Below are positions 40,739 to 63,959 of a DNA stretch of 64,000 bases, piece after piece. The stretch is from positions 131,528 through 195,527 of the IMG/VR virus record IMGVR_UViG_3300042197_002234; one strand, given 5' to 3'. This DNA is from a virus. A program made the position numbers and the translations under genes. The notes under the pieces were generated by a model that searched no databases, had not been told where the DNA came from, and saw only the letters and a list, made by a program, of their open reading frames with translations. Position 1 is the first letter of the stretch. Every line of letters begins with the position of its first letter.

Positions 40739-41083
40739 TTAGTTTAAATTTATTTTTACACCACCACCTGGTAATTCCGTACAACTCCATTTACCATTCT
40801 CAATCCCAACATTTTTCTCGTTCCATTTAGTCCAAGTACCGTCAGGTTCAAGGTCAATGGTTACACCACCTTTATCACCAAAAGTGGCACCTTGACTTGG
40901 TATATTTTCAATAAAACTTAAAAAAGGGTAATCACCTAGTTTATATCCAGACTTAAACGTTTTAGATAACTTATCCCAAGGAACTCTACATCCTATTGTC
41001 GTACTTTGCGACTGTTCTTCAGAAATAACTCGTTTAACAATTCTAATTAAATCTGTTTCTGTTAATCTTACAATTTTTGACAT
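40739..41083 (-). CDS. MSKIVRLTE-leader hypothetical protein
   Basis: Leader shared with 44413-44808. Confidence 0.65.
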   Translation of the reverse strand: MSKIVRLTETDLIRIVKRVISEEQSQSTTIGCRVPWDKLSKTFKSGYKLGDYPFLSFIENIPSQGATFGDKGGVTIDLEPDGTWTKWNEKNVGIENGKWSCTELPGGGVKINLN

Positions 41084-41091
41084 AATATTTT

Positions 41092-41442
41092 TTATATATA
41101 AATATTAATTAAATCATCAATTTTTAATCCCAAGGGGGGGATTCCAAGATATTCCATAATGTCATCTTCAGAATACAGTCTATCTCTATTATCTGTAATC
41201 GTGACACGTACAAAATTACTATCACCTTGATTTTGGTATAAGAATTTACCTTTAGGTGTTTCAATAACATACATTGGGCCAAAATTATTTAAATAACGGC
41301 TTAGCATTCTTGACCTAATATAACTAAATTCTTTAGGTAATTCATATTCGTTGGTCACCATATGAATTTTATCGGTCAGGTCAATACCTAATCTGTTCTC
41401 AATGAAATTTTTTAACTTATTCTCGGTGATTATTAACTTCAT
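41092..41442 (-). CDS. MKLIITE-leader hypothetical protein
   Basis: Start reassigned to MKLIITENKL. Confidence 0.65.
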   Translation of the reverse strand: MKLIITENKLKNFIENRLGIDLTDKIHMVTNEYELPKEFSYIRSRMLSRYLNNFGPMYVIETPKGKFLYQNQGDSNFVRVTITDNRDRLYSEDDIMEYLGIPPLGLKIDDLINIYI

Positions 41443-41603
41443 ACATATAAATAGCGTGAAATTAATAAACGCGGCGGGGAGGGGGTCGATTTTTAAGATG
41501 AATACCAAACAACCCGAAGGGGTCGGGGACGGACGACAAAAAATATACCGACGAAAGTCGGGTTCGGTTTATGCTGCCCCATTAAAAGTATGATTTTTTT
41601 ATC

Positions 41604-41777
41604 TTAATATTGTTCAAGCCAATTATTATACCACTTATCATTCCCCACATTTTCAAAAAACTCTTCTCTGTTTTTCTTAAACTCCTCAGAACATTTGGTA
41701 TGAACAAAATCACCATCTCCAACATGTTCCATTAGAGATTCATTTTCAATTTCTTTTTTACAGTGAAAACATTTCAT
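41604..41777 (-). CDS. 57-aa putative zinc-binding protein (not in ORF track)
   Basis: Manual translation MKCFHCKKEI...VHTKCSEEF; CxxC and HxxC; directly downstream of the tRNA-like gene. Confidence 0.55.
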   Translation of the reverse strand: MKCFHCKKEIENESLMEHVGDGDFVHTKCSEEFKKNREEFFENVGNDKWYNNWLEQY

Positions 41778-41794
41778 AACTTATATTTTAGTAG

Positions 41795-41914
41795 TAGTCA
41801 GGACAGGATTCGAACCTGTATGAAGAGTATGTGTGTCTCTTCTCCTATGGGTTTACCTCAAGGGTTTCCACCTGCCATCGCACGTTGTAGCGTCTACCAT
41901 TCCGCCACCTGACT
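41795..41914 (-). tRNA. Atypical tRNA-like RNA, 120 nt, no canonical anticodon arm
   Basis: Acceptor stem AGTCAGG/CCTGACT+A; D-arm GCGGAATGGTAGACGC; T-arm ACAGGTTCGAATCCTGT; about 70-nt central region; TATCTTTG promoter 41921-41928. Confidence 0.7.
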
Positions 41915-41957
41915 TGAATACAAAGATAGTACAGAATTTTGAATTTTCAAAATTTTT

Positions 41958-42335
41958 TTAATACCAATGGAACCAAACATTATTTACGTCCCAACCGTAG
42001 TGTCTCTTGGCAAACACTTTAATTAGATTATTAAAAGAATCTCTGGATGACTTATCTTTGTTAATTAAATTATGAACATTTAAAAACGGTAAGTTTGTAG
42101 AATTAAATAAGTCATCAATAAAATTAACTCCAACATAAAACTCTTTTCTTTCCCAATCATAATAAAATAATAAGTTTTCGTCATCCTCACTATCAAATAC
42201 TTCGGTATGGTCAATAGATTCAGAATAAGACTCGTAATTTTCAGGGTAAAACAAATACAATAACTTATACAAAACATCAGACTTTTTTTCCAAGTCCAAT
42301 AAATTAACTTGGTTTTCAGTTATAATGATTTTCAT
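41958..42335 (-). CDS. MKIIITE-leader protein, distant W[VF]E-family member
   Basis: Leader; C-terminus KVFAKRHYGWDVNNV. Confidence 0.65.
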   Translation of the reverse strand: MKIIITENQVNLLDLEKKSDVLYKLLYLFYPENYESYSESIDHTEVFDSEDDENLLFYYDWERKEFYVGVNFIDDLFNSTNLPFLNVHNLINKDKSSRDSFNNLIKVFAKRHYGWDVNNVWFHWY

Positions 42336-42715
42336 ACATATAAATATGATAGTTGTAACGGGATGTTCAACGTAGGTCCATCAACTATATAAACTGGTTC
42401 GTAGTAACTCGCCTTCCTTTGTAGGGTATGTTCAACCCACTTAACTATGAGTTCTTGAACTTCAGATTCTTGAAATCCAGTCATGGATGATAAAAATGAC
42501 CCAGTCATGGATGATAAAAATGATATTAAGTCATATGAAATATAACACGCGTCATCTTTATCAAACCTAATTTCAGCATATTCATCACCAATATTCTTAA
42601 CAAAATAAATCCTATCTTTAATTTCCACAAGATTATAATTCTTATTGTTTAATAACATAAAGATAAAACTCTTCTTAACATCCAATTCCTGATTTTCTGT
42701 TATAATTATTTTCAT
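42332..42715 (-). CDS. W[VF]E-family protein with C-terminal repeat-spacer unit
   Basis: Paralog of 43283 and 43645 ORFs; internal 24-nt duplication (SFLSSMTG x2). Confidence 0.75.
   Translation of the reverse strand: MKIIITENQELDVKKSFIFMLLNNKNYNLVEIKDRIYFVKNIGDEYAEIRFDKDDACYISYDLISFLSSMTGSFLSSMTGFQESEVQELIVKWVEHTLQRKASYYEPVYIVDGPTLNIPLQLSYLYV
42360..42436. CRISPR. Mini-array unit 1: partial repeat, 29-nt spacer, diverged 36-nt repeat
   Basis: Partial repeat 42360-42371; spacer 42372-42400; repeat 42401-42436 GTAGTAACTCGCCTTCCTTTGTAGGGTATGTTCAAC (6 mismatches to consensus). Confidence 0.55.
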
Positions 42716-42738
42716 ACATATAAATATGTTAGTTATAG

Positions 42739-42816
42739 GGTATGTTCAACACTCAGGTTAGCCTTTACTGTTCCTTTTGGGTTGTATCTCACCTCCATTT
42801 GTAAGTTATATTCAAT
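42739..42816. CRISPR. Mini-array unit 2, not attached to a family ORF
   Basis: Partial repeat 42739-42750; 30-nt spacer 42751-42780; repeat 42781-42816 (first 25 nt perfect, 3 mismatches after). Confidence 0.65.
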
Positions 42817-42997
42817 TTTTCCCAACATTACGTCTAAGTGGTTCTTTTTTGAAGAAGTACCCTGATATATCTACATAAGGTAATACCTCTCGGTCTCCTT
42901 CAATTGTGGTTGTACCATTTTTACCTTTTAACATCACAATTTTATATCCAAATTTGTTGGATAACCATTTGATAAATTTTACGTGTAATCTTTTCAT
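42812..42997 (-). CDS. Hypothetical protein
   Basis: 61-aa ORF; stop codon falls inside the repeat at 42781-42816. Confidence 0.55.
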   Translation of the reverse strand: MKRLHVKFIKWLSNKFGYKIVMLKGKNGTTTIEGDREVLPYVDISGYFFKKEPLRRNVGKN

Positions 42998-43000
42998 AAT

Positions 43001-43132
43001 TTAATTTATTTTAAGTTTTTTAGTAGTAATTTTTACTGAACCGTTTGTAATTGAGTTCATAATTTTTTGACATTCATTCCAGTTTTTACAATTAGTCAAA
43101 TCTACAGTAATTAAATTTCTTTCTTTTTTCAT
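43001..43132 (-). CDS. 43-aa hypothetical protein (not in ORF track)
   Basis: Manual translation MKKERNLITVDLTNCKNWNECQKIMNS...; TAAATTTG promoter 43164-43171. Confidence 0.5.
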   Translation of the reverse strand: MKKERNLITVDLTNCKNWNECQKIMNSITNGSVKITTKKLKIN

Positions 43133-43232
43133 ACAAATTTTAATTGTTTTAATATATGACAAACAAATTTACGAATAAAAACTGAATATAACAAATGATA
43201 AACAACATTAAAACGATTGTTTATCATCAGAC

Positions 43233-43375
43233 GGTATGTTCAACTTCCAATGACAAAGGGTATAATCGAAATGTGTTGTATCTCACCTCCATTTGTAAGG
43301 TATGTTCAACAACGGAAAATTGTCGATGTTCTTGACCATGTTGTATCTCACCTCCATTTGTAAGGTATGTTCAAC
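43233..43375. CRISPR. Mini-array 3: two perfect 36-nt repeats plus partial repeat, spacers 30 and 29 nt
   Basis: GTTGTATCTCACCTCCATTTGTAAGGTATGTTCAAC at 43275-43310 and 43340-43375; partial 43233-43244; spacers 43245-43274 and 43311-43339. Confidence 0.8.
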
Positions 43376-43630
43376 CCAGTTACCTATAAGTTCTTGAACT
43401 TCAGACCATTTAAACCCAGTCAAGGATGATAAAAATGATATTAAGTCATATGAAATATAACACGCGTCATCTTTATCAAACCTAATTTCAGCATATTCAT
43501 CCCCAATCTTTTTAACAAAATAAATATTATTGTTAATCTCAATAAGATTATAATTCATATTGTTTAATAACATGAAGATAATTTTCTTTTTAATATCCAA
43601 TTCCTGACTTTCAGATATGATGATTTTCAT
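43283..43630 (-). CDS. W[VF]E-family protein ending inside mini-array 3
   Basis: C-terminus WVEHTLQMEVRYN-(spacer)-LNIPYKWR; stop codon lies in the second repeat. Confidence 0.75.
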   Translation of the reverse strand: MKIIISESQELDIKKKIIFMLLNNMNYNLIEINNNIYFVKKIGDEYAEIRFDKDDACYISYDLISFLSSLTGFKWSEVQELIGNWVEHTLQMEVRYNMVKNIDNFPLLNIPYKWR

Positions 43631-43644
43631 GTAATATAAATATG

Positions 43645-43989
43645 TTAGTTATAGGGTATGTTCAACCATGAATCCAACTGTGCTTTTTTCAGTGGGTTGG
43701 ATTTCACCTCCATTTGTAAGGTATGTTCAACCCAGTTACCTATAAGTTCTATAACTTCATGCCTTAGGAACCCAGTCATGGTTGACAAAAATGAGATAAA
43801 TTTATGTGATATCAAACACGCACCATTACTTTTATTAAATCTAATATCACCTTTTTCATCCCCAATCTTTTTAACAAAATAAATATTATTGTTAATCTCA
43901 ATAAGATTATAATTCATATTGTTTAATAACATGAAGATAATTTTCTTTTTAATATCCAATTCCTGACTTTCAGTTATAATAATTTTCAT
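43645..43989 (-). CDS. W[VF]E-family protein with C-terminal repeat-spacer unit
   Basis: MKIIITESQELD start; WVEHTLQMEVKSN-(spacer)-LNIPYN. Confidence 0.75.
   Translation of the reverse strand: MKIIITESQELDIKKKIIFMLLNNMNYNLIEINNNIYFVKKIGDEKGDIRFNKSNGACLISHKFISFLSTMTGFLRHEVIELIGNWVEHTLQMEVKSNPLKKAQLDSWLNIPYN
43655..43731. CRISPR. Mini-array unit 4
   Basis: Partial repeat 43655-43666; 29-nt spacer 43667-43695; repeat 43696-43731 with 2 mismatches. Confidence 0.7.
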
Positions 43990-44324
43990 CACCAATTATC
44001 TTTGTTAACGAAGTTAATTCTTGTATTATCAACATATTTAAAACCTGTATACTCAATCATTTTTCTAAATTCGTATTTAAGAACAGATATATCAATTCCA
44101 TGAACAATCTTTTCTTTCTTTATTTCAGGTTTGTAATTAAAACTTTCTGGCATGTCAGGTTTTGAATGAATATCAACAACAAAACCATGGGATTCACCTC
44201 TATCACCATATCTAACATTAACTTTAAACTCAAATGGCTCGGTAACAAAATTATCAGTAAGATACTTGTTGCCAAGATTATTAAATAATTTAGTAAGAAT
44301 CGTAGATAGTGTGGTAAGATTCAT
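43989..44324 (-). CDS. Hypothetical protein
   Basis: Start reassigned to MNLTT after ATATTTAT; stop overlaps next start. Confidence 0.6.
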   Translation of the reverse strand: MNLTTLSTILTKLFNNLGNKYLTDNFVTEPFEFKVNVRYGDRGESHGFVVDIHSKPDMPESFNYKPEIKKEKIVHGIDISVLKYEFRKMIEYTGFKYVDNTRINFVNKDNW

Positions 44325-44412
44325 ATACATAAATATCGGACAGTCCGAAATAATGTCCAATAAAAAACCCCCAACATAAGAAGGGGGTTTATATTTTAAT
44401 TGTTAATTTATT

Positions 44413-44808
44413 TTAGTCTTCAAATGGGTCAGGAAAATCCATTCCTTCAATGGTGTCATAAAAATAATCAACCGTTCCTTCAATCATATCACTTGCGATT
44501 ATTTCTAATTCATTTAAGGTTTCATCAGATAAATCTTCCTCCTCCATGAAATTCATAAATAACTTATCAAGGTCGTATTGCATTTTATTTACATATACAT
44601 CAATATCATATGTTCCTCTAATGTGACCGTTTTCCAAATCTATTTCAAATAAGTTAACCACATTATTTATCACCTCTTCAATAAACTCTACATAATTCTC
44701 AGTTGGCAATGGAGGTAACATATCATAATCCTCATCTTCGTTTTCTTTAATTACTCTTTTTACGATACGAGCCAAATCGGCTTCGGTTAGTCTAACAATC
44801 TTTTTCAT
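44413..44808 (-). CDS. MKKIVRLTE-leader acidic protein
   Basis: Leader shared with 40739-41083. Confidence 0.65.
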   Translation of the reverse strand: MKKIVRLTEADLARIVKRVIKENEDEDYDMLPPLPTENYVEFIEEVINNVVNLFEIDLENGHIRGTYDIDVYVNKMQYDLDKLFMNFMEEEDLSDETLNELEIIASDMIEGTVDYFYDTIEGMDFPDPFED

Positions 44809-44838
44809 GATATTATTTTTATAATAAATATACGAAAA

Positions 44839-45180
44839 TTACAAAACTTTCCCATCTATAAGAACCTCATCAACATTAAAGTCGGATGACCAATCATAAT
44901 CATACGGAAACTTATCGGGTTCACAACAATTTCCAGTTTCAACATTCATCCTTGATTCAACCCAATGTTTAATCGGTTCTATTTTTTTCATCTCCATGGA
45001 AAGACATAAATAAATTGGTTTAAAAAAATCATAGTTCCACCAAGTGTATTTTGTTTTGGTATAATAAGATATAACCCATTCTTTTGTTTTTGGGTTAATT
45101 AACCAAATATGATTTTCGTGACCATAGACCAAGCAATCTTTGGTCATACCATCAATCATTTTAAAAAACGCGTTTTCCAT
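44839..45180 (-). CDS. W[VF]E-family protein, array-less
   Basis: KHWVESRMNVE; paralogous to 45161-45565; start ATG lies in the terminal partial repeat of array 5. Confidence 0.65.
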   Translation of the reverse strand: MENAFFKMIDGMTKDCLVYGHENHIWLINPKTKEWVISYYTKTKYTWWNYDFFKPIYLCLSMEMKKIEPIKHWVESRMNVETGNCCEPDKFPYDYDWSSDFNVDEVLIDGKVL

Positions 45181-45565
45181 TCAACACCTCTTCCACCCGT
45201 TCCCTACTTTGGAACCAACACAGTAAAGGTGTATTCACCTTGCAATTCAACACCTCTTCCACCTCCAACTCTAAAACGATGGTAGAATAAGGAGGTGTAT
45301 TCACCTTGCAATTCAACACCTCTTCCACCCACTCAGATATAATGGGTTCAAAATCATGTCGTTCAAATGAAAACCAAACAAAAAAATTATGAAAGAATGA
45401 ATGCCTCCACCATAGAGTTCCATCATTTTTATATTCAAAATACCAATACTTATTTTTCCTATCAATAAACCATATGGAATCATTGTATGGTATTATCTCA
45501 ACCTTAGATAATTCTTTATAAAGTTTCTTGAATATAGTATCTTTTAACTTGTTTGATATTTTCAT
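45161..45565 (-). CDS. W[VF]E-family protein translated through mini-array 5
   Basis: VEEVLNCKVNTP x2 plus VEEVLNG, separated by unrelated 10-aa spacers. Confidence 0.75.
   Translation of the reverse strand: MKISNKLKDTIFKKLYKELSKVEIIPYNDSIWFIDRKNKYWYFEYKNDGTLWWRHSFFHNFFVWFSFERHDFEPIISEWVEEVLNCKVNTPPYSTIVLELEVEEVLNCKVNTPLLCWFQSRERVEEVLNGKRVF
45179..45329. CRISPR. Mini-array 5: second repeat type, two perfect 36-nt repeats plus partial, two 30-nt spacers
   Basis: GGTGTATTCACCTTGCAATTCAACACCTCTTCCACC at 45228-45263 and 45294-45329; partial 45179-45197; spacers 45198-45227 and 45264-45293. Confidence 0.8.
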
Positions 45566-45723
45566 AATACAATGATACTAAAATAATTTGAAATAAAAAA
45601 ACGGGAGTGTTCCCAAAAATTTTATTTTAACTTTCCGACTCATTTTATATAAGGGGGTCGTTTTTATGGGAAAATAAAAAACCCCCACCAAAAGGTTTTT
45701 GAATCAAAGATATTTAACATCAG

Positions 45724-46158
45724 ATGAAACCAATAGAACAAACAAAATTTTCACTATTTTATCCAGACGGAAAAAGAGCCACATATGGAAATTGCTTAAT
45801 AGCAAATATTGCATCAATATTAGAAGAATCAATAAATGAGGTACCAAACATATACGTGTTTTACGGAATGGAAAAAAAAGAAACCCCCATTGAAGAACAA
45901 ACATGGTTTAATGTGTTAAACATATGGTTAAAATTTAAACACAATAAAATCATGACAAAACATGAACTATATGAACCAACTAAATCAAAATACGTAATAA
46001 TGAGAGGTCTATCACCAAAAGACAGAGCACATACTTGCATATATGAAAATACTAATAAAGGGTTTGTTATGGTTCATGACCCACACCCATTATCGGTCGG
46101 ATTAAAAACACTACAGTACTATTATACTATAGAAAATGTGACTACGACCCAAAAATAA
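45724..46158 (+). CDS. Hypothetical phage protein
   Basis: GNCL.A.IASILE...VP...H.C....VHDPHP pattern; A/C-rich codon use. Confidence 0.65.
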   Translation: MKPIEQTKFSLFYPDGKRATYGNCLIANIASILEESINEVPNIYVFYGMEKKETPIEEQTWFNVLNIWLKFKHNKIMTKHELYEPTKSKYVIMRGLSPKDRAHTCIYENTNKGFVMVHDPHPLSVGLKTLQYYYTIENVTTTQK

Positions 46159-46426
46159 ATTTAAATATCTTTCCCCTTATATTATCAATCTTTTTTATTG
46201 CCAACCATTTACCACACACCCCACCACCAACATAAAAAACAATTACAAAAACATCCCCACTTAATAACCCCTCTAATGAATAAAACACGGAACCTATTGA
46301 TAATAAATTAATCCATACTGTGTTGAGCAATAATGGAACCAATTTATTTTCATAGGTATACTTAATTTCCAAAACTTTGAATATGTTGAATAATAATTGA
46401 AATATGAAAATAATGAAATATGTCAC
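46142..46426 (-). CDS. 3-TM membrane protein
   Basis: Three hydrophobic helices; FYVGGGVCG. Confidence 0.6.
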   Translation of the reverse strand: MTYFIIFIFQLLFNIFKVLEIKYTYENKLVPLLLNTVWINLLSIGSVFYSLEGLLSGDVFVIVFYVGGGVCGKWLAIKKIDNIRGKIFKFIFGS

Positions 46427-46583
46427 AATTCAAATATAAAGTATGAACCCAACTTTATGAATATTTTCTCCAAAATTACAGAAAATTTTTTTTTAGGAAT
46501 TGGGGTCCAAATTAAAATGGGGGTCGTGCTCTGGGAAATAAAAAACCTCACTGTTTAGGTGGGGGTTTATAAGTATTATTTTT

Positions 46584-47030
46584 TTACTTTAATTTTTGAC
46601 TTGCTAATACCCCTATTTGTTGGACAAGATTTGTATAACTATTAAAGTGCCCAATTGCAGAATCAATAGCTCTTATTAAGTTATCTCTTTTTTGTGTCGG
46701 CATTTTTGAAGATGTTATCTTATTCTTTAATGATGACAATTCATTCATTATTTTTTGATTTGGTTTGTCAAGTTTTTGTAGACTATCCATCTGTCTCTTT
46801 AAATTATTTAGATATTTGAAATAATCGTATCCTTCACCTCTCCATACACCCTTAAGACCTGAAACCATATCAGATAGTCCCTCTGTCGGTTCTTCTTTCT
46901 TAATCTTTAATCCGTTTATTTCATCGCCAAACGCAACACCCTTCATGTTTTCACTAACGGTATGTCCTTCATTAACATATTGACTCAATATAGATTTTCT
47001 ATCTTCTTCAGAAATTATAAATCTTCTCAT
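46584..47030 (-). CDS. MRRFIISE-leader coiled-coil protein
   Basis: GTATTTAT upstream; internal EPTE motif. Confidence 0.65.
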   Translation of the reverse strand: MRRFIISEEDRKSILSQYVNEGHTVSENMKGVAFGDEINGLKIKKEEPTEGLSDMVSGLKGVWRGEGYDYFKYLNNLKRQMDSLQKLDKPNQKIMNELSSLKNKITSSKMPTQKRDNLIRAIDSAIGHFNSYTNLVQQIGVLASQKLK

Positions 47031-62831: not shown

Positions 62832-63959
62832 TTACAAACCGTATTTAGATTTTGTTGCGTTAAAGTTTTGACTAATTTCTGAGGTATTTAAACCTTTGGT
62901 ATAGAAATAACAAGCACCTATTTTACCATTTAAATAAAGAGAGCTAATACCAGAACCAATCCATCCTAAATACAGTGGATTAGTTTCACCATATGTATCA
63001 GTTCCATGGGCATTACTTCCATACTCTGTTTCATTAATGTAAACTAATGTTGTGTTTGAGGTTGATGTTATTTGAGAAATAAACGTAAATAAATACCACG
63101 TATTAATATTAACTGTTAGTGTTGAAGTTGTGACTCTTTGTAATGATGTTCCATTTGTGACAACCCTAACAGTTCCAGTGTTTGAAAATAAACCACCCCA
63201 ATAACCGTCAAAGCCAGACGCACTTGATAACTTACCAAATACAGGTACTTGGGTTCCTGCAGCAGGTAGAGTGTCAAATTTAACCCAAACTTGAATTGTT
63301 TTTTGAATTGTTGTTGATAATGATAAAGAAGAATTGTGTGGAATTGAAATAGTATCATTAGAACCATCAAAATCAAATATACCACCGTCAGTAGATGACC
63401 ATGTAGCACCATTAATAGTTGCGTTATTTCCATTACCAGTTTCATCTAACCATAATCCACTTACATAGTTAGTGGCATCTAATTCCATAAATAAATCACT
63501 TTGAACTATTCCCCCGCCTGATGGTGATGGTGTTGGAGTAACTGTTGGTGTTGGGGTAACTGTTGGTGTTGGGGTAACTGTTGGTGTTGGGGTAGGTGAA
63601 ACACTAATCCATGAAGTCCAATACCCATTATTGTTTAAATAAGTTTTACAATCATCTCCAGTTGCAAAAGATTGATTAAAAAGTTGATTAACTAAATCAA
63701 CAAAAGATTGTTCAGTTTTAGCAGTACTTCTTTTAAACCCAACATAAGCAGGAATCCCTAACTGATTTGGTTGTGTACCACCGCTAATAGGTACACAAAT
63801 AACATAGCCTAAATCTTCATCGGGACCATTCCACCATTGAACTCCACCTGGTTGTTCTGAATAATCTAAAGAATCAACACCAATCGCTAAGTCACCAAGT
63901 TGTTCAGTACCTGAAATTGTATTACCTGTATTATATGCGAATGGTCTTGCGGTCGGCAT
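62832..63959 (-). CDS. LamG-domain protein with Pro/Thr linker
   Basis: N-terminal WWNGPDE domain, (PTPTVT)n linker, ELDA...FDFDGSND...YTKGLNTSEISQNFNA. Confidence 0.8.
   Translation of the reverse strand: MPTARPFAYNTGNTISGTEQLGDLAIGVDSLDYSEQPGGVQWWNGPDEDLGYVICVPISGGTQPNQLGIPAYVGFKRSTAKTEQSFVDLVNQLFNQSFATGDDCKTYLNNNGYWTSWISVSPTPTPTVTPTPTVTPTPTVTPTPSPSGGGIVQSDLFMELDATNYVSGLWLDETGNGNNATINGATWSSTDGGIFDFDGSNDTISIPHNSSLSLSTTIQKTIQVWVKFDTLPAAGTQVPVFGKLSSASGFDGYWGGLFSNTGTVRVVTNGTSLQRVTTSTLTVNINTWYLFTFISQITSTSNTTLVYINETEYGSNAHGTDTYGETNPLYLGWIGSGISSLYLNGKIGACYFYTKGLNTSEISQNFNATKSKYGL
63541..63594. repeat. 18-nt tandem repeat x3 encoding TPTPTV linker
   Basis: ACTGTTGGTGTTGGGGTA repeated three times. 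Confidence 0.85.

Follow-up and report, generated by a model that had tools for sequence, protein, structure and literature searches.

CRISPR arrays are regarded as non-coding loci of the host. In Flavobacteriaceae, arrays whose repeats run from GTTG to CAAC combine 36-bp repeats with 30-bp spacers at a period of 66 bp, and the type VI-B array of Flavobacterium columnare, which is filled in trans by the Cas1-Cas2 of a type II-C system, has taken up many spacers from the host genome (Hoikkala et al. 2021, PMC8092290). CRISPR-type repeats accompanied by no cas genes are found in viruses as mini-arrays, solitary repeat units and RNA anti-CRISPRs (PMC11656645; Camara-Wilpert et al. 2023, PMC10651486). 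The known viral mini-arrays carry repeats identical to those of the host, are non-coding and mostly target related viruses, and in the literature on mini-arrays and solitary repeats, including a 2024 review of CRISPR in mobile elements, we found no array inside an open reading frame (ORF) and none that is translated (PMC11656645). Here, we describe P0001, a gene of an uncultured giant phage from freshwater that ends in an in-frame array with CRISPR geometry. It lies in a stretch of 64,000 nucleotides (nt), hereafter the window, which spans positions 131,528 to 195,527 of the IMG/VR virus record IMGVR_UViG_3300042197_002234; coordinates given without a locus name are positions in the window. 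The whole record is 195.5 kb long and an estimated 65% complete, the GC content of the window is approximately 30%, and the only named relatives of the phage are Flavobacterium phages of the immuto group.

P0001 (45161..45565, minus strand) encodes 134 amino acids (aa), an N-terminal alpha/beta domain (residues 1–87) followed by an in-frame tail of repeats and inserts (residues 88–134). The first 36-nt repeat copy (45294..45329; all elements of the array are on the minus strand) starts with the last base of the Trp79 codon, encodes VEEVLNCKVNT(P) and occupies the position where a leader-proximal repeat would be. It is followed by a 30-nt insert, or “spacer” (45264..45293), translated as (P)PYSTIVLEL(E), by a second 36-nt copy identical to the first (45228..45263), by a second 30-nt insert (45198..45227), translated as (P)LLCWFQSRE(R), and by a terminal partial repeat (45179..45197) that comprises the initial 19 nt of the coding-strand repeat and encodes VEEVLN. 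The ORF then ends in GKRVF*, at 45161–45163. An identical 37-mer is present at 45227–45263 and 45293–45329, within which the 36-nt repeats are set in the register of the family, and both start-to-start distances in the array are 66 nt. Three occurrences of the 18-nt core of the repeat compare with a chance expectation of 0.07, and none of 100 shuffles reached that number. Neither insert has kin in the other or elsewhere in the record at up to 8 mismatches, and an Rfam scan of 41000–47000 (E up to 10) placed no CRISPR repeat or other RNA family over the array. This is the minimal form of such an array: two repeats, two inserts and one terminal partial repeat. A first-pass annotation, made from the letters alone, had described two repeats, a 19-nt remnant and two unrelated 30-nt spacers, and all of these were located in that geometry. 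The translated end reads VEEVLNCKVNTP-PYSTIVLELE-VEEVLNCKVNTP-LLCWFQSRER-VEEVLNGKRVF*, as the annotation had it, and the ATG of the next gene (ORF 44839..45180, minus strand) does lie in the remnant repeat, at 45178–45180.

The architecture is widespread. Exact searches of IMG/VR with the repeat gave no match, and of the repeat searches only that with a codon-degenerate pattern succeeded. In the relatives compared (5 IMG/VR loci and 50 lake-metagenome loci, with more IMG/VR loci added by that pattern), the array is found at the 3´ end of the homologous gene, in frame, and pairs a 36-nt repeat encoding VEEVLNCKVxTT with a 30-nt unique insert. Arrays range from 2 to 16 units, the largest being in an ORF of 440 aa (locus L024), and the lengths of the homologues rise by 22 residues (134, 156, 178, 200, 222, 244). 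Across 61 loci, 262 of 267 neighbouring repeat pairs are exactly 66 nt apart. There are at least 907 homologous metagenome proteins, all unnamed, and conservation of the layout across so large a family bears out the earlier proposal that the architecture is under selection. A search for population variants of the window's own gene yielded none; its best match is 75% identical (L092), or 87.5% in the N-terminal domain (P0118), and the comparisons of which array end varies were accordingly made in sister lineages.

On balance, we favour the view that the translated tail of this gene grew by insertions of the Cas1-Cas2 type at a pseudo leader-repeat junction, probably made by host machinery. The best surviving alternative, which we nevertheless consider unlikely, is an ordinary protein tandem repeat of 22 residues that arose by slippage or unequal crossing-over. 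Its 12-residue core would be kept by selection and gene conversion, its 10-residue linker would drift or be diversified to saturation, and both the 36 + 30 geometry and the likeness to CRISPR would be coincidental. Within one array, however, the repeats are identical or nearly so, silent sites included, whereas the linkers agree no better than random sequence: compared in register, inserts are identical at a mean of 8.25 of 30 positions (8.5 within arrays) against 7.99 of 30 for shuffles, and no intermediate pairs are seen. Interspaces that are diverged copies of one another had been named beforehand as the mark of an ordinary tandem duplication, and identity at the level of shuffles indicates that they are not. 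Entropy is approximately 4 bits at each variable residue and 0–1.3 bits in most core residues, the exceptions being residue 11 (1.7 bits) and the variable tenth position, marked x (2.7 bits). In 255 of the 262 internal copies, GTG is preceded by G, even though this base occupies the third position of a hypervariable codon. Inclusion of a third-position G in 97% of the repeat copies is difficult to accommodate in a repeat selected as protein. Similarly, 98% of the periods measure 66 nt, even though 63 or 69 nt would also keep the frame. Judged by these patterns, the repeat is defined at the DNA level. The inserts have a GC content of 40.5% compared to 31.6% for the phage, and linkers that are 9 points above the phage are off its mutational equilibrium, which again argues against drift in place.

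When genomes are compared, nearly all differences in the repeat are synonymous. This is what an ordinary protein repeat would predict, and it is also consistent with selection acting on copy 1 as a portion of the folded domain. In an AlphaFold2 model of P0001 (72-sequence alignment), the predicted local distance difference test score is approximately 93 at residues 1–87 and below 50 at residues 88–134. The modelled first repeat forms the C-terminal half of helix alpha3, the last helix of the domain, and the inserts and further repeat copies (residues 88–134) are predicted to be disordered. The extra copies evolve at an omega of approximately 0.5 (196 synonymous vs 375 nonsynonymous codon differences), and weak constraint of this kind in a segment predicted to be disordered speaks against a core maintained for its protein structure.

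None of 210 distinct internal inserts from the 61 loci carries an in-frame stop, compared to 32–58% in each of the other five frames, which supports true translation of the array. Random 30-mers of phage or Flavobacteriaceae DNA are open in only approximately 55–58% of cases. A translated, always open array is just what an ordinary protein repeat would give, yet the sister arrays of a second repeat type in the same phage (R1, as opposed to R2 in P0001) have equal geometry (36 nt + 29–30 nt) and are mostly out of frame.

The turnover of units provides a further distinction. Among proteins whose N-terminal domains are 99–100% identical, entire inserts are present, missing or replaced. The lake variants provide four independent sets in which upstream DNA is 93–99.5% identical, distal inserts are shared (..SCAYLEDIEG; ..SNSMAQPPKL; ..NSFQAGLVFE; ..DGDTFYISEE..KERLERFIFK) and the differences lie at the ORF-proximal end. 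Loci L094 and L099 are 99% identical upstream and have only the last insert in common, which is not achievable by point mutation; that genes diverged by approximately 1% differ by several whole linkers, and in a polar manner, is not expected of an ordinary protein repeat. Among 52 array pairs with at least one insert in common, 159 of the units that are not shared lie proximally, 14 internally and 56 distally, although split chains inflate the last of these counts in part. Mismatches in the repeat climb with distance from the ORF (0.7, 2.3, 2.7, 3.5, 5.4) and reach 6.8 in the last copy. In these comparisons, units are gained proximally and lost internally, in agreement with the first-pass annotation, which had placed growth at the ORF-proximal end because the degenerate copy is ORF-distal. 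A separate observation concerns L016, in which two paralogous arrays (1208–1273 and 1748–1813) have only the last unit in common (TTHMYNNGEI and TTHMYTNGEI; 27/30 nt), suggesting that gene duplication preceded the proximal additions.

The repeat is reminiscent of authentic CRISPR repeats. A pattern scan of 381 Flavobacteriaceae genomes revealed GTTG..N28..CAAC arrays with a period of 66 in three of them (G040, G264 and G330), which we take to be of type VI-B; the repeat of G040 is presumably the Cas13b repeat of Bergeyella zoohelcum. On the coding strand, R2 repeats match that of G040 at 21–24 of 36 positions (21 for the window repeat) and that of G264 at 19–23 of 36, and they are 58–67% identical to Flavobacteriaceae GTTG..CAAC repeats with both end motifs included. 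Among 20,000 random phage 36-mers, the mean match was 9.4 (standard deviation 2.6) and the maximum 21, and the authentic repeats match one another at 23–30 of 36. A likeness to Cas13b-type repeats, already raised in the first reading of the locus, is thus real at the level of sequence. The antisense strand of R2 reaches only approximately 17/36, and R1 repeats match the authentic ones at 20–26/36. Within the gene family, the corresponding motif DNA of arrayed paralogues scores 19–26/36 and that of array-less paralogues 7–16/36 (7–15/36 for P0002, the gene downstream of P0001), such that only paralogues with repeat-like motif DNA carry arrays. Most R2 relatives end in ...ACAAC, and on the coding strand the gene body stands where a leader would be expected. 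The leader-distal end common to II-C and VI-B repeats is 5´-GTTGT-3´ (PMC8092290), which by reverse complement should read ACAAC on the strand in the sense of the CRISPR RNA (crRNA). Repeat orientation, polarity, repeat length and spacer length all fit a VI-B-type array, and growth from one end with a degenerate terminal repeat is a trait that the phage arrays and the Flavobacteriaceae arrays have in common. Unlike the latter, the phage array is inside an ORF and in frame, all of its inserts are open and its first repeat is part of a folded domain; moreover, the R2 array has no hairpin, no AT-rich leader and no cas gene nearby.

One element of the earlier interpretation found no support, namely that the GGTG/CACC ends of the window repeat represent a terminal stem kept by compensatory change. 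R2 folds no better than shuffles, and the repeat ends of the relatives are not complementary, since the CAAC found in most of them leaves a mismatch to the GGTG end. GGTG, which is invariant, joins the final base of the Trp codon to GTG (Val), and CACC is a Thr-to-Pro codon variant of the customary CAAC. With both ends explained by codons and no R2 hairpin, the stem is unsupported. What stands of that interpretation is a translated, conserved and polar array with a Cas13b-like sequence.

Growth by Cas1-Cas2-type insertion, our preferred explanation, might have proceeded as follows. The 36 bp coding for the terminus of the domain's last helix (W-VEEVLNCKVNT.) would, through their coding-strand resemblance to Flavobacteriaceae GTTG..CAAC repeats, have presented a target. 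Unrelated 30-bp pieces of DNA would then have been inserted singly beside the gene-proximal repeat, with duplication of the repeat each time; insertion coupled to repeat duplication is the hallmark of a Cas1-Cas2 integrase that uses a length ruler. The absence of Cas1 from five incomplete phage records makes the adaptation machinery of the host the most likely agent. Survivors would be the insertions that keep the frame, either because the terminal V-E-E-V-L motif is still made, because translation reaches the overlapping start of the next gene, or both. The resulting protein would carry a tail of 22-residue units that is disordered and hypervariable, and the older, distal repeat copies would decay under relaxed selection. 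The integrase itself, and why the frame remains open, we infer. Lacking the Cas13b hairpin, R2 is in our view a target for integration and a protein tail that is tolerated or exploited, rather than a source of crRNA.

Host-genome spacers are a feature of the F. columnare VI-B array (PMC8092290), and here two inserts match host genes. The test covered 53 inserts; the genome search scored the best two candidates per genome and is thus of low sensitivity, and AT-rich intergenic DNA gives rise to many noise matches. For the L016 query (17 inserts; 401 Flavobacteriaceae genomes), the two best matches fall on inserts. The first (L057 1501–1530) has 28/30 identities in an aldehyde dehydrogenase gene, in the same strand and frame (peptides GSSLLELGG vs GKSLLELGGN), and both ends of the alignment are at insert borders. 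The second (L058 ~1506–1535) has 27/30 identities in a 762-aa ORF, on the sense strand in a shifted frame; its 3´ end is on the insert border, and its 5´ end extends 5 nt into the repeat. The border coincidences have an estimated p of approximately 0.01–0.05 and are suggestive only.

A number of observations weigh against the insertion of foreign DNA by a host integrase. The R2 RNA of the window lacks a Cas13b-like hairpin (-4.7 kcal/mol, z = -0.3), and the R2 repeats of L014 and L017 fold at z = +1.2 and -0.15; by comparison, an authentic repeat folds at -11.2 kcal/mol (z = -3.4), and the R1 repeat keeps an authentic-like fold (-6.5 kcal/mol, z = -2.0). Only 2 of the 53 inserts match host chromosomes, and noise matches of similar E-value occur. 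Neither window insert matches anything in its own record, in Flavobacteriaceae genomes or, as exact 20-nt cores, in IMG/VR; the inserts of the window, L024 and L122 had no match in 401 or 391 Flavobacteriaceae genomes, and inserts had none in an isolate-phage database or the five related phage records. Five phage records, 29–65% complete, contain no Cas1 (PF01867), in a search that was not aimed at Cas13b, and a phage-encoded Cas1 was rejected on this basis for those portions of the genomes that were covered. No host was identified. No array of the R2 repeat was found in 185,579 species genomes, where a degenerate pattern gave single chance hits only, so R2 arrays are phage-only and a host array with this repeat is not known. 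Ordinary recombination also shapes the arrays, as seen from a duplicated unit in L024 and from the cassette SAAQEYVGKK, which occurs in two of the variant sets. Finally, host Cas1-Cas2 integration into a replicating phage genome is, to our knowledge, unreported. Several of these points are at home in the ordinary protein repeat described above, in particular the lack of a hairpin, the lack of a cas gene in the Cas1 search of the five records, the whole-unit duplication and the cassettes common to different arrays.

The fuller version of the preferred reading is held more tentatively, and we regard it as a possibility rather than as probable. According to this version, phage genes offer a pseudo leader-repeat junction into which host Cas1-Cas2 writes 30-bp pieces of host or other DNA, and the result is tolerated or exploited by the phage. 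If exploited, the array may act as a sink and draw adaptation away, or it may generate hypervariable protein tails by way of the integrase. Off-target integration of spacers by Cas1-Cas2 at repeat-like sites in the E. coli chromosome was reportedly observed by Nivala and co-workers, and likewise involves a spacer whose insertion duplicates a pseudo-repeat at a site other than a bona fide CRISPR locus. That reaction is said to be rare and to occur upon over-expression of Cas1-Cas2, whereas the phage case is a conserved gene family with long translated arrays in nature. Short hypervariable coding cassettes between flanks that are identical at silent sites also occur in multi-core peptide precursors, such as that encoded by the cyanobactin gene patE. 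Unlike these precursors, the phage arrays have no known processing enzymes or recognition sites, and they have the geometry and polarity of a CRISPR array.

The array could instead work as RNA, as a CRISPR mini-array or decoy that serves the phage, although we find this improbable. The tail of the mRNA would be cut and loaded by host Cas13b, either to supply guides that target competitors or transcripts of the host or, as an RNA anti-CRISPR, to sequester Cas13b. It is established that viruses exploit or block host CRISPR systems with mini-arrays and solitary repeat units (PMC11656645; PMC10651486), and the window copy resembles a viral mini-array in having two spacers. The repeat is in crRNA sense on the mRNA, its sequence is like that of authentic repeats and the neighbouring R1 repeat retains its hairpin, but no such hairpin forms in the R2 repeats of three phages. 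The repeat in known viral mini-arrays is that of the host itself, whereas R2 repeats are approximately 60% like authentic ones and form arrays in none of the species genomes searched; the phage arrays also differ in reaching 16 units and in being translated. No viral target was found in isolate phages, in the five related records or, for 20-nt cores of the window inserts, in IMG/VR, and no insert matches related phages. The two host-matching inserts are in the sense of the host mRNA and hence unable to guide Cas13b to it, and the complete absence of in-frame stops would be unexplained by a role in RNA only.

Turnover that is rapid, localized and polar, and that affects a defined site across many phages and several paralogues within a genome, might also suggest a diversifier encoded by the phage, be it a diversity-generating retroelement or an integrase or polymerase of some other kind, but this is most improbable, as the five records, all incomplete, contain no reverse transcriptase (RVT_1), the variable segments are not adenine-mutated copies of a template and have nothing similar in their own record, and no conserved enzyme gene was noticed beside the arrays, though without a systematic neighbourhood analysis. 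A diversity-generating retroelement in particular was rejected, with no RVT_1 in these records and no template-like copy in the own record.

The gene family is abundant in lake metagenomes and unites CRISPR geometry, a CRISPR-like repeat and polar turnover within a translatable ORF. If a host integrase builds the arrays, adaptation machinery acts on phage genomes in nature and leaves datable records there, and a CRISPR integrase is a source of protein hypervariability. Should the more tentative version above also be true, the arrays would record, in nature, how CRISPR integrases act on viral genomes, and would also represent a translated CRISPR-type array. If the builder is not a host integrase, a mechanism as yet unknown copies CRISPR geometry exactly.

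P0001 belongs to a group of paralogues within the phage, which comprises P0002 and the genes at 43645, 43283, 42332, 49156 (plus strand) and 53927 (plus strand). Pfam and PHROG scans of eight paralogues assigned no family, and a Foldseek search of the modelled N-terminal domain of P0001 against the PDB gave no match at E up to 0.001. P0002 (44839..45180, minus strand; 113 aa) is an array-less paralogue (E = 1.8e-7 to P0001) that overlaps the array ORF by 20 nt. The paralogues have in common the motif W-[VF]-E-x-x-L-x-x-K-V near the C-terminus, and array-less members end a few residues later. An ending similar to V[DE]EVL is seen in relatives and in P0002. The sister arrays of type R1, which encode VEHTLQMEV.., are found at 42360..43731 (minus strand), at the ends of the paralogues 42332, 43283 and 43645. 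A remnant unit of repeat, insert and partial repeat of R1 type is also present at 42739–42816, behind an unrelated 61-aa ORF (42812–42997); in another frame it reads ..EYNLQMEVRYN-PKGTVKANLS-VEHTL* and looks like the 3´ end of a lost paralogue. In another phage, an R1-type orthologue (L018 4001–4351) has the same layout, in which 36 nt of repeat are followed by 29 nt of insert and 20 nt of partial repeat; translation of the partial copy in a shifted frame gives the ending LLNIPYKLI, and ..LNIPY.. is common to the window paralogues.

Some further features of the window may be mentioned. At 41795–41914 (minus strand), an Rfam tRNA model matches with 37 bits (E = 3.5e-5); the acceptor, D and T arms are intact, with approximately 61 nt where the anticodon region should be, and ARAGORN reported no tRNA in the whole window. 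Within the ORF 42332..42715 (minus strand), a perfect 24-nt tandem duplication at 42477–42523 encodes SFLSSMTG twice, and is an ordinary in-frame repeat unlike the arrays. Another repeat is found in the ORF 62832..63959 (minus strand), where the 18-nt unit TGGTGTTGGGGTAACTGT is present in 3.7 copies at 97% identity (63528–63594).

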